A program made the translations under genes and the position numbers. A DNA stretch of 64,000 nucleotides from Escherichia phage vB_Eco_BCPEco_001. Below are positions 45,698 through 49,459 of this stretch, piece by piece; the stretch's first letter is position 1, and each line of letters opens with the position of its first letter. The stretch is from the sequence record PV295200.1. The stretch is one strand, 5' to 3'. The notes beneath the pieces were generated by a model that saw only the letters and a program-made list of their open reading frames with translations, was not told the origin of the DNA and did no database searches.

Positions 45698-47209
45698 TTA
45701 TAAATTAACTGTTTTCATTACGTAATTAAATTTTTCATCTGCGTAGCGCTGAATACGATCAATGCCGTGTTTTAAAAGATAGTTCAAATGAACATATTTC
45801 TTTTTTGTATTAGCAGATTTTGGCTTAACACCGCAATCATCTATGAGGTCCCAGACTGTTGCTATTGTCTTAGAACCATGCTTACGTAATACACGACCGA
45901 TTGTTTGCAATACAATGATTTTTGATTTAACACCGTGCGCTAAAACAACGTGATGCAGATTTTTAACTGAAATACCAGTAGAAAATACACCATAACTAGC
46001 TACTATAATTATTCCTTTACCATTTTCAGCTAAGGTTTTCATTATATTGCGGGTTTCGGTATCAACTTCCCCTGATACGTAATAAACTTTATCGTATTCA
46101 TTTTTAATTAAATCGAAAATAGCTTTACCGTGCGATACATGTTTAAACATGACAAAAGCGTTTTCATCTTTTTGCGCAAGCTTAATAGCTAATTTAGCGA
46201 TCCATTTATTTCTTTTACTAAGCCCAGTAATAATTTTTATTTCTTCTTGGTAAGTTTTTCCCTTTAATTTAGTAGTGAACTCATCGGGATAGCGAAGAAA
46301 AATACTATTAATTTTTAGCTCAGTTACTTGTCCATCTTCCATTAATTTAGAAGTCGTTACTGGCTTAAATATTTCACCAAACATTCCAACATACTGCATG
46401 ATATTGGCTTTGCCATCACGTAATGAACCTGATAGACCAAATTTAAACATACAGTTATTTAATCCTGATATGATAGATGAAATACTTTTTCCTGTAGCAA
46501 GATGGCATTCATCATTCATCATCATTCCAAACTGTGAGAACCATTCTTTTGGTTGTTTAACTACAGTTTGCCATGTACCAACGACGACTGGTGCATCATT
46601 TTTATATTTATCATCTTTTGATGCTCCGCCACCGATTTTCTTTATCATTGCATGACTGAATAAACGATAATCAACAAAGTCATCAGCCATCTGAGTTGTC
46701 AGAGCAGTTGTTGGAACAATGATAAGAATTTTACCTTCATAATTTTCCAAATAATATCGCGCAAGCAAAGCTTGAATTAAAGATTTACCCGCAGATGTTG
46801 GAAGATTAAGAATTCTACGACGATTAACTAATCCTTCGAACACTGCATCTTTTTGATACCAGTGTGGTTCAATTCTTTTATTTCCTGAATAGATTTCTAA
46901 TTTAGAAAGCCATTCATCAAAATCTTTTCTTGATAATTCTTCTTTTTCGTTAATTTGCGGGTCAATCCAGGCTTTATAGCCAAAATTATCACAGAACTTT
47001 TTAATTTGCCCGACTAAGCCGAATGGAAGAAGACGATTATAATCTAAAAGACGGATTCGTCCATCCCAGTTGCCATATCTGAAGCGAGGATTAAACCTAT
47101 ATCCATCAGCTTCAAAGCTAAAGAAATCACGGAGTTCATGAAATGTACTTTCTTCACAATCAATTCTCACGTGACTAAAATCATAAAAATGTACTTTAAT
47201 GTCAGTCAT
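45698..47209 (-). CDS. uvsW: UvsW RNA-DNA / DNA helicase
   Basis: 503 aa; SF2 helicase motifs (Walker A PTSAGKS, DECH box NDECHLA). Confidence 0.9.
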   Translation of the reverse strand: MTDIKVHFYDFSHVRIDCEESTFHELRDFFSFEADGYRFNPRFRYGNWDGRIRLLDYNRLLPFGLVGQIKKFCDNFGYKAWIDPQINEKEELSRKDFDEWLSKLEIYSGNKRIEPHWYQKDAVFEGLVNRRRILNLPTSAGKSLIQALLARYYLENYEGKILIIVPTTALTTQMADDFVDYRLFSHAMIKKIGGGASKDDKYKNDAPVVVGTWQTVVKQPKEWFSQFGMMMNDECHLATGKSISSIISGLNNCMFKFGLSGSLRDGKANIMQYVGMFGEIFKPVTTSKLMEDGQVTELKINSIFLRYPDEFTTKLKGKTYQEEIKIITGLSKRNKWIAKLAIKLAQKDENAFVMFKHVSHGKAIFDLIKNEYDKVYYVSGEVDTETRNIMKTLAENGKGIIIVASYGVFSTGISVKNLHHVVLAHGVKSKIIVLQTIGRVLRKHGSKTIATVWDLIDDCGVKPKSANTKKKYVHLNYLLKHGIDRIQRYADEKFNYVMKTVNL

Positions 47210-47949: not shown

Positions 47950-49370
47950 ATGACTTTTACAGTTGATATAACTCCTAAAACACCGACAGGGGGTTATTGA
48001 TGAAACTAAGCAGTTTACTGCTACACCCAGTGGTGAAACTGGAGGCGGAACTATTACATATGCTTGGACTGTAGATGATGCTCCACAAGATGGAGCTGAA
48101 GCAACTTTTGATTATGTATTAAAAGGACCTGCTGGACAAAAGACTATTAAAGTAGTTGCAACAAATACAGTTCCAGATACTGATGCTGAAACAGCAGAAG
48201 CTACTACAACTATCACAGTTCAAAATAAGACACAAACGACTACCTTAGCTGTAACTCCTAATAGTCCTCCGGAAGGAGTAATCGGAACAGCTGTTGAATT
48301 TACCGCTGCCTTAGATTCGCAGCCACCTGGCGCATCTGCTACGTATCAATGGCACGTTGACGGTTCTCCTGCGGGCGAAGCAACTTCTGCTACATTCAAT
48401 TACACTCCTACCACAAGCGGAGTTAAAACAATTAAGTGTGTGGCTCAAGTAACCGCAACAGATTATGATGCAAAAGAAGTTACTTCTAATGAAGTGTCAC
48501 TGACTGTTAATAAAAAGACACAGACAACTACCTTAGCCGTAACTCCTGATAGTCCTTCAGCTGGAGTAATTGGAACCCCCAGTTCAATTTACTGCTGCCT
48601 TAGCTTCTCAACCAGTTGGAGCGTCTGCTACGTATCAGTGGTATGTAGATGATTCACAAGTTGGTGGAGAAACTAACTCTACATTTAGCTATACTCCAAC
48701 TACAAGTGGAGTAAAAAGAATTAAATGCGTAGCCCAAGTAACTGCTGAAAATTACAATGAAAAGGAAGTTACTTCTAATGAAGTATCATTAACGGTTAAT
48801 AAGAAGACAATGAATCCACAGGTTACATTGACTCCTCCTTCTATTAACGTGCAGCAAGATGCTTTGGCTACATTTACCGCTAATGTCACTGATGCTCCAG
48901 AAGAAGCGCAAATTGCGTATTCATGGAAGAAAGATTCTTCTCCTGTAGAAGGGTCAACTAATGTATATACCGTTGATACCTCATCTATTGGAAGTCAAAC
49001 TATTGAAGTTACTGCAACTGTTACTGCTGCTGATTATGATAGCAAAACTATTACGGCAGAAGGTCAAGTTCAGGTAACTGATAAAGTTGCTCCGGAACCA
49101 GAAGGTGAATTACCTTATGTTCATCCTCTTCCACACCGTAGCTCAGCTTACATCTGGTGTGGTTGGTGGGTTATGGATGAAATCCAAAAAATGACTGAAG
49201 AAGGTAAAGATTGGAAAACTGAAGATCCAGATAGTAAATACTACCTGCATCGTTACACTCTTCAGAAGATGATGAAAGACTATCCAGAAGTTGATGTCCA
49301 AGAATCACGTAATGGATACATCATTCATAAAACTGCTTTAGAAACTGGTATCATCTATACCTATCCATAA
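47950..49370 (+). pseudogene. hoc: hoc (highly immunogenic outer capsid protein) interrupted by two +1 frameshifts; also carries an extra Ig-like domain
   Basis: ATG 47950 gives MTFTVDITPKTPTGG then stop at 47998; frame continues in +1 after a G5 run (47989-47993) and again in +1 after a C5 run (48576-48580); C-terminus ...GIIYTYP. Confidence 0.8.
48227..48803 (+). repeat. tandem duplication (2 x ~288 bp) inside hoc encoding two Ig-like domains
   Basis: Copies start AAGACACAAACGACTACCTTAGC (48227) and AAGACACAGACAACTACCTTAGC (48515); encoded 96-aa units ~78% identical. Confidence 0.8.
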
Positions 49371-49374
49371 TCGT

Positions 49375-49399
49375 AAGGGGCTTCGGCCCCTTTCTTCAT
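49375..49399 (+). terminator. rho-independent terminator after hoc
   Basis: AAGGGGC-TTCG-GCCCCTT followed by TCTTCATTTT. Confidence 0.65.
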
Positions 49400-49459
49400 T
49401 TTGAAAGCATACAAAACACAACTTGAGATTGATGTATATAATGGCACCAACTCGATAAC

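Follow-up and report, generated by a model that had tools for sequence, protein, structure and literature searches.

The window, that is, the whole 64,000-nucleotide stretch of Escherichia phage vB_Eco_BCPEco_001 DNA that was analysed, carries on its forward strand, at positions 47950-49370, the hoc gene (highly immunogenic outer capsid protein) of a T4-like phage (Tequatrovirus). The fibre formed by Hoc, which is not essential to the phage, stands at the centre of the capsid hexamers. The gene is 1421 nt long, running in the three-frame translation from an ATG at 47950 to a TAA that ends at 49370, and it lies where hoc is expected, in the order uvsW-inh-hoc-24.3-24.2-rnlB, with the window ORFs in agreement with the annotation of SHFML-11, PST and T4. 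Its frame is broken by two +1 frameshifts, one in a run of five G (G5, 47989-47993) and one in a run of five C (C5, 48576-48580). Removal of one G and one C yields a 1419-nt ORF of 472 aa, which is the approximate length that a first-pass annotation of this DNA had proposed for the frame-corrected protein.

A phmmer search of the PDB with the corrected Hoc returned T4 Hoc (PDB: 5vf3, chain Z, 376 aa) with an E-value of 2e-218, residues 189-472 of the query aligning with residues 93-376 of T4 Hoc. The gene opens with an Ig-like domain 1 (47950-48226, aa 1-92), which holds the G5 run. It is followed by two tandem repeat units (48227-48514 and 48515-48803), an Ig-like domain equivalent to T4 Hoc domain 3 (48804-49082, including a T at 48865 that specifies Leu), and a C-terminal domain for capsid binding with the stop codon (49083-49370), all on the forward strand. 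The capsid-binding domain is homologous to T4 Hoc residues 281-376 and aligns to the T4 C-terminus; its C-terminal 92 codons have a dN of 0.004 against T4 and are nearly invariant in 28 homologues.

Tandem units and domain architecture

With Tandem Repeats Finder, one array was detected, at 48227-48809 (period 289, 2.0 copies, 77% matches, score 700), and a second repeat search recovered the same pair of units at a spacing of 288/289. Unit 1 has 288 nt and encodes 96 aa forming a complete Ig-like (PKD-type) domain, which is extra with respect to T4. Unit 2 has 289 nt, including the one extra C, and encodes the Ig-like orthologue of domain 2 of T4 Hoc. With the extra C removed, the two are identical at 222 of 288 nt (77%) and 75 of 96 aa (78%), and the period is then exactly 96 codons and in phase with the domains, as in an in-frame tandem domain duplication. 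For comparison, 2000 mononucleotide shuffles of unit 2 had a mean identity to unit 1 of 26% and never exceeded 36%. The first-pass annotation had placed adjacent units of about 288 bp from about 48227 and 48515, encoding 96-aa segments about 78% identical; the repeat detection and the identity counts bear this out, and the translations are exactly those that it quoted.

The similarity between the units is of another order than that among the Ig-like domains in general. They share 75 of 96 residues, whereas each matches domain 1 or domain 3 at only 33 to 36 of about 91 positions (domain 1 has 36/91 identities to unit 1 and 33/91 to unit 2). Judged by sequence, units 1 and 2 are paralogues derived from a duplication of domain 2. 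T4 hoc (1131 nt, 376 aa, the protein length that the first-pass annotation had given) has a single unit, which is 92% identical in nucleotide sequence to unit 2 (100% in the central part) and 78% identical to unit 1, and therefore unit 1 (aa 93-188) is the extra domain. It had been allowed that T4 Hoc might itself contain both units, in which case nothing would have been added here; it contains one.

An AlphaFold2 model was made for P0009, a 472-aa homologue with 97% identity, as a stand-in for the corrected window protein. It shows four beta-sandwiches, with strands at residues 3-91, 98-187, 194-283 and 290-376, and a pLDDT of mostly about 86-96 over residues 1-370 (about 90 for domain 1), the C-terminal domain being poorly modelled. 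The best PDB matches of the model in Foldseek are strings of four Ig domains, e.g. Dscam1 Ig1-4 and ICAM-5 D1-D4. In Pfam, PKD is matched by unit 1 (E = 0.002) and unit 2 (E = 3e-5), with a PKD score of 31.5 bits versus a cut-off of 23.5, and Ig_3 is matched as well; of the four Ig domains, Pfam scores only one or two above threshold, and the domain count rests on the repeats together with the AlphaFold2 model. The model, Foldseek and Pfam agree on a string of Ig-like domains.

The repeat boundaries also agree with the modelled domains, units 1 and 2 covering aa 93-188 and 189-284 and the corresponding model domains 98-187 and 194-283. The span of unit 1 further coincides with the published limits of Hoc domain 2 in PNJ-6 (Q95-T185; PMC11150434) and PNJ-9 (N92-N187; PMC11853027). 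The frame-corrected Hoc is thus modelled as four Ig-like domains followed by a capsid-binding domain, compared with three Ig-like domains in T4. The check that had been suggested, alignment of the corrected protein to T4 Hoc with a count of domains, gives one more than T4 (472 versus 376 aa), as had been claimed.

Distribution, age and copy-number change

A megablast search with hoc against 50,697 GenBank phage records found 682 matches, and all 40 of the 40 best-ranked carry the long form. Sampling the ranking at 60 evenly spaced rows gave 20 long forms (about 1415-1418 bp, in one piece) and 30 short, T4-like ones (about 1127-1130 bp, in two pieces); the other 10 were partial matches or of another kind. 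Lengths of 376, 472 and 568 aa occur in the ratio 81:31:8 among the 120 best protein clusters, i.e., one, two and three units of exactly 96 aa, and intact 472-aa clusters have up to 167 members (P0009). The 472-aa form is common and widespread, being found in about a third of the relatives sampled.

This distribution bears directly on the reading that the second unit is an assembly artefact, produced for example by expansion of the repeat or by fusion of two hoc alleles that were assembled together. The window apparently comes from automated short-read (Logan) assemblies and its hoc has frame problems, both of which would be in keeping with such an origin. Against it, Shigella phage SHFML-11 (NC_030953, YP_009277552.1) and Salmonella phage BCPSen_003 have the same arrangement at 99.9% identity over the whole gene, with both units and with G5; the gene is found in one piece in the 40 best-ranked rows and in a third of the evenly spaced ones, and intact 472-aa ORFs are many; and the identical sequence was obtained from two separate runs. 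In addition, no exact match between the two units is longer than 20 nt, which is not enough to mislead an assembler that works at k=31 or at read length; a wrong copy number from assembly is therefore unlikely. Taken together, we give an artefact a negligible probability and treat both units as real.

SHFML-11 and BCPSen_003 differ from the window by its extra C (C5) and by a C-to-T change at 48865, and the rest of their genomes is only about 98.4% identical to it. The intact 472-aa Hoc proteins (the P0009 cluster; phages BF15, G10400, ESh33, KMB23 and WilhelmHis) have the same four-Ig organization at 88-97% identity and differ in having G4 and C4 and open ORFs.

The wording of the first-pass annotation implied a fresh internal duplication, and one could suppose that a recent tandem duplication in this phage lineage, starting from a T4-like three-Ig ancestor, made the extra domain. 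The units do adjoin, are in frame and are clearly homologous, and the reference phage T4 has a single unit. The divergence between them, on the other hand, is large. By the Nei-Gojobori method dS is 1.07, dN 0.126 and omega 0.12, with the dS taken from only 72 synonymous sites and near saturation. This is about four times the dS of 0.25 between the non-unit part of hoc and T4 hoc, a comparison that places the duplication before the split from T4 on the assumption of vertical descent of hoc, while phage genes are mosaic. Nucleotide differences between the units amount to 23%, and the identical unit types occur in the identical order in about a third of related genomes. Identity between the two units is at most 85% in every two-unit protein sampled (n=31), which gives no indication of new duplications, and unit types are largely position-specific in multi-unit proteins. 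A recent, lineage-specific origin is hence very improbable, and that part of the earlier reading does not stand. To judge from the substitution rates, the duplication is ancient and both copies are held under purifying selection, which would have acted on them for far longer than the sampled Tequatrovirus hoc alleles have diverged.

The number of units is not constant. Shorter proteins were compared with longer ones from which 96 residues had been deleted at any register, and 12 of 82 one-unit proteins lie within 2 mismatches of such a deletion derivative. For nine of the one-unit proteins, taking 96 aa out of a two-unit protein reproduces the repeat region with 0 mismatches, and the flanks are almost the same. 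Eight of the derivatives are true chimeras that join the N-terminal part of unit 1 to the C-terminal part of unit 2, with crossover intervals at unit residues 15-21, 17-21, 23-33, 34-45, 43-47, 63-67 and 69-77, of which at least six are different. Because the parental units are about 23% diverged, chimeras of this kind arise only by deletion from a two-unit gene and not in the reverse direction. The same is seen at the DNA level: deletion of 288 bp from ESh33 hoc gives SHBML-50-1 hoc, whose unit shows no mismatch and whose informative sites change cleanly and only once, at unit nt 45-62, from the unit-1 to the unit-2 state. Some two-unit alleles are likewise linked to three-unit ones as three-to-two derivatives. 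This is the pattern of a repeat whose copy number varies by unequal homologous recombination, and at the level of the sequences compared, recurrent contraction by in-register exchange between the units is demonstrated.

Three-unit alleles could also be rebuilt from two sampled two-unit alleles, with 2 mismatches for P0003 and P0007 and 8-19 for the others, and expansion from two to three units by the reciprocal event may tentatively be called plausible. The T4 unit has 5 mismatches to the best deletion chimera. As many as 54 of the 82 one-unit proteins differ from every sampled parent by 6 mismatches or more, and for this reason many of the short alleles may belong to an old lineage of their own.

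In this allele, then, the domain-2 cassette of 96 codons exists as two tandem paralogues, with unit 2 as the orthologue of T4 domain 2. Across relatives the cassette is found in one, two or three copies, giving proteins of 376, 472 or 568 aa, and its number changes by unequal homologous recombination between the diverged units, as demonstrated for contraction and inferred for expansion. By analogy with T4, the fibre of roughly 180 Å would become about one quarter longer with the extra domain. The domain-2 surface would then be present twice, and with it the SLT motif, which is reported to bind MUC2 in phage PNJ-9.

The G5 and C5 frameshifts

The G5 run causes a +1 frameshift after codon 14. 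Beyond it the ATG frame meets TGA TGA two codons on, and translation would stop after 16 codons. Nearly all relatives have G4 here. A 51-nt megablast of the exact G5 context against GenBank phages matched 526 records in all. Among the matches listed, only SHFML-11, BCPSen_003, BCPShso_001 and PST have G5 (6 full-length rows, including RefSeq duplicates), and in the other 54 listed records the match covers 50 nt instead of 51, corresponding to G4. An exact-pattern scan of IMG/VR gave 0 matches to the G5 context and only 2 to the G4 context, too few to inform. A single Ig1 haplotype, with 0-2 differences over 277 nt, is common to all the G5 alleles, and their downstream contexts are of several types: two-unit of the SHFML type, two-unit of the PST type (roughly 95% identical), and one-unit in BCPShso_001. 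One domain-1 haplotype joined to differing downstream contexts favours a real heritable G5 mutation that would have been recombined into different backgrounds, and independent sequencing errors appear less likely.

The C5 run lies inside unit 2, where SHFML-11 and BCPSen_003 have C4, and causes the second +1 frameshift. It is found only in the window among the records compared. The 266-aa ORF that results from it is present on four Logan contigs; contigs from runs ERR15500949 and ERR15500950 are both 100% identical to the window and both have C5; one of the two extends to the G run, and it has G5 as well. Over window positions 34408-64000 (about 30 kb), C5 is the sole isolated homopolymer-run indel with respect to SHFML-11, the remaining indels being located in divergent patches or multiples of 3. 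The T at 48865, read as Leu, replaces a C (Ser) of the closest relatives at a nearly invariant position.

These observations have to be weighed against the possibility that both frameshifts are homopolymer sequencing or consensus errors and that the real phage encodes an uninterrupted four-Ig Hoc of 472 aa. Each is a gain of one base in a short mononucleotide run, which is the classic type of error, and the frame downstream is otherwise fully open and conserved. PST, moreover, was deposited in 2013, when homopolymer-error-prone platforms were common. Errors would nevertheless have to produce the same G5 in four deposited phages from at least three unrelated naming series, always on the one Ig1 haplotype while the others listed have G4, and the same C5 in contigs from at least two runs, without leaving any further isolated homopolymer indel in the region compared with SHFML-11. 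The Ser-to-Leu change at 48865 in turn fits relaxed constraint. We therefore consider errors unlikely, though with an appreciable chance of being the explanation.

A different account would make G5 a recoding site, at which a +1 slip of tRNA-Gly on GGG-G gives full-length Hoc at a reduced, tunable level; in a variant of this, UAU-UGA would be the slip site, lying downstream of the Shine-Dalgarno-like AGGGGG in an arrangement that recalls prfB. The exact T4 sequence TPTGVIDE would indeed be regained by a +1 slip on the G run, and PST, SHFML-11 and BCPShso_001 keep an open downstream frame although they are about 5% diverged. The motif AGGGGG-U-UAU-UGA also superficially resembles the prfB site, AGGGGG-UAU-CUU-UGA. 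The rarity of G5 speaks against recoding: with exact matches in 4 distinct phages only, G4 in the other listed records and none in IMG/VR, it is rare among records with the same context and so not a conserved feature of hoc. Nor do the details of the site suit it, as GGU, the A-site codon in the 0 frame, is a common one, AUU does not allow tRNA-Tyr to re-pair, and the Shine-Dalgarno-like element is spaced by 1 nt, not 3. The second frameshift of the window would in any case be beyond rescue by such a mechanism. The conserved shift site and stimulators of a prfB-like programmed +1 frameshift are thus not found at G5, and we regard recoding, in the two forms taken together, as highly improbable.

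With neither errors nor recoding preferred, the hoc gene of the window, which has no intact reading frame, is most likely an allele that is naturally null for hoc or in decay. As far as the DNA can tell, full-length Hoc is probably not made and this phage would be Hoc null. Internal re-initiation was considered at GTG 48440 and TTG 48570, and direct reading found no convincing Shine-Dalgarno sequence before either.

The suggestion in the first-pass annotation that the long direct repeat promoted the indels or assembly problems does not fit what was found. Both indels are +1 homopolymer expansions, and G5 lies within domain 1, 234 nt upstream of the repeat. As for assembly, both indels recur in independent assemblies, and the exact match between the units is as short as stated above.

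Related Hoc proteins and significance

The closest characterized system is T4 Hoc (376 aa; PDB: 5vf3, 8t1x; PMC10385173). It has in common with the window the inh-hoc-24.3 locus, the N-terminal Ig domain, a domain 2 orthologous to unit 2, domain 3 and the capsid-binding C-terminus. It differs in lacking unit 1, the extra 96-aa Ig-like domain that the window has between T4 domains 1 and 2, and in that the window copy is frameshifted twice. Longer and shorter forms are known. The 568-aa Hoc of Escherichia phages UGKSEcP1 and UGKSEcP2 has three copies of the 96-aa unit and the conserved capsid-binding domain, and the Hoc of Serratia phage Muldoon carries up to 10 Ig domains on a conserved capsid-binding domain (PMC10385173). 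PNJ-9 Hoc has two Ig domains; it lacks domain 3, so that domain 2 is not the one that varies there (PMC11853027).

That Hoc consists of a conserved capsid-binding domain and a string of Ig-like domains was described by Fokine et al. in 2023, with a domain number that varies across 650 Hoc homologues and reaches 10 in Muldoon (PMC10385173), and Fu et al. characterized a natural variant without domain 3 in 2024 (PMC11853027). The window allele is therefore already known both as a sequence (SHFML-11, 2016, 99.9%) and as a principle, and many four-Ig Hoc proteins are present in GenBank. For this window, what has been gained is a clean explanation and not a discovery, the allele being an ordinary one that is already deposited. 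In the searchable literature, we found no explicit description of a four-Ig, 472-aa Tequatrovirus Hoc, of a series of one, two and three domain-2 copies within Tequatrovirus, of recurrent recombinational contraction of hoc, or of a circulating G5 null haplotype. The copy series, the recurrent contraction and the G5 null haplotype are modest additions of specialist interest.

The best overall explanation, in which we have considerable confidence, is that the window carries an ancient two-unit, four-Ig hoc allele whose unit number varies by recombination and which is here probably null by frameshifts. A broader proposition joins three elements: a recombination-driven Hoc length polymorphism of one, two or three units, a T4 three-Ig Hoc that is itself a contracted form, and a G5 null haplotype spread across unit backgrounds. 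As a whole we hold it to be somewhat more probable than its opposite. If it is true, capsid fibres would be shortened time and again in phage populations, perhaps lengthened as well, and the glycan-binding surface would be shuffled anew.

The model of bacteriophage adherence to mucus is built on Hoc as the Ig-domain fibre, and Hoc also serves widely as a display scaffold in T4 nanoparticle vaccines. Natural relatives have three, four or five Ig domains at the hoc locus, with the extras always domain-2 paralogues that exchange by recombination. This may be of use in picking natural length variants for mucin-binding or display experiments, in the interpretation of hoc-null field isolates and in better annotation of hoc. 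Many records name the gene "PKD domain protein" or "endonuclease", or give it as a shortened 309-aa CDS, which in SHFML-11-type records starts from an internal GTG because of the G5 frameshift.

Frameshifts and substitutions within hoc

The first frameshift of the head-decoration gene hoc (window 47950-49370, plus strand), a G5 run located after codon 14 at 47989-47993, is common to the window, SHFML-11, BCPSen_003, Shigella phage BCPShso_001 and Yersinia phage PST. A single domain-1 haplotype underlies all G5 alleles, and the contexts of the 96-aa Ig-like units downstream of it differ. The T4 peptide TPTGVIDE would be regained if a +1 slip occurred on the G run, and the surrounding AGGGGG-U-UAU-UGA bears a loose likeness to the prfB frameshift site.

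The second frameshift, C5 at 48576-48580, is matched exactly in Logan contigs (L011 and L012) from runs ERR15500949 and ERR15500950. The window was probably drawn from that sequencing project, and the indel is no artefact confined to a single assembly. We also noticed that the one-unit G5 allele of BCPShso_001 (PV295201) reads "...IIYTIHNHKGLRPLSSF" before its stop codon instead of "...IIYTYP", and this altered C-terminal reading suggests an additional indel adjoining the stop codon, which, if present, would be another mark of decay, or of record error.

At position 48865 the window carries T, giving leucine (DALATF); SHFML-11, BCPSen_003 and almost all homologues carry C, giving serine (DASATF). 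The substitution is non-synonymous and hits a residue that is close to invariant, and the gene around it already carries frameshifts.

Divergent units and annotation of Hoc homologs

In some two- and three-unit Hoc proteins (clusters P0084 and P0093 of the protein search) the middle units are much more divergent, for example "AVAVTPASPAPVEIGTATTFTANVSNQP...", and this strong divergence suggests that Ig cassettes have been exchanged with Hoc lineages further removed. A 2-aa insertion in domain 1 is present in variants of 474, 570 and 378 aa. Several database records are oddly annotated. The 472-aa cluster P0010 is labelled "endonuclease [Shigella sonnei]", and other Hoc clusters are labelled "PKD domain-containing protein [Escherichia coli]". 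A T4-like hoc with 92% identity is found in the record of "Staphylococcus phage SAJK-IND" (MG010123), which is probably due to mislabelling or contamination.

Regions flanking hoc

Directly 3' of the hoc stop codon, at 49371-49405, a GC-rich hairpin (aaggggcttcggcccctt) and the T run behind it together look like an intrinsic terminator; the fPS-90 record has a terminator annotated at the equivalent position. On the upstream side, uvsW is a single 503-aa ORF in the window (45698-47209), whereas the PST copy, which also lies 5' of inh, is split by the homing endonuclease gene segE.
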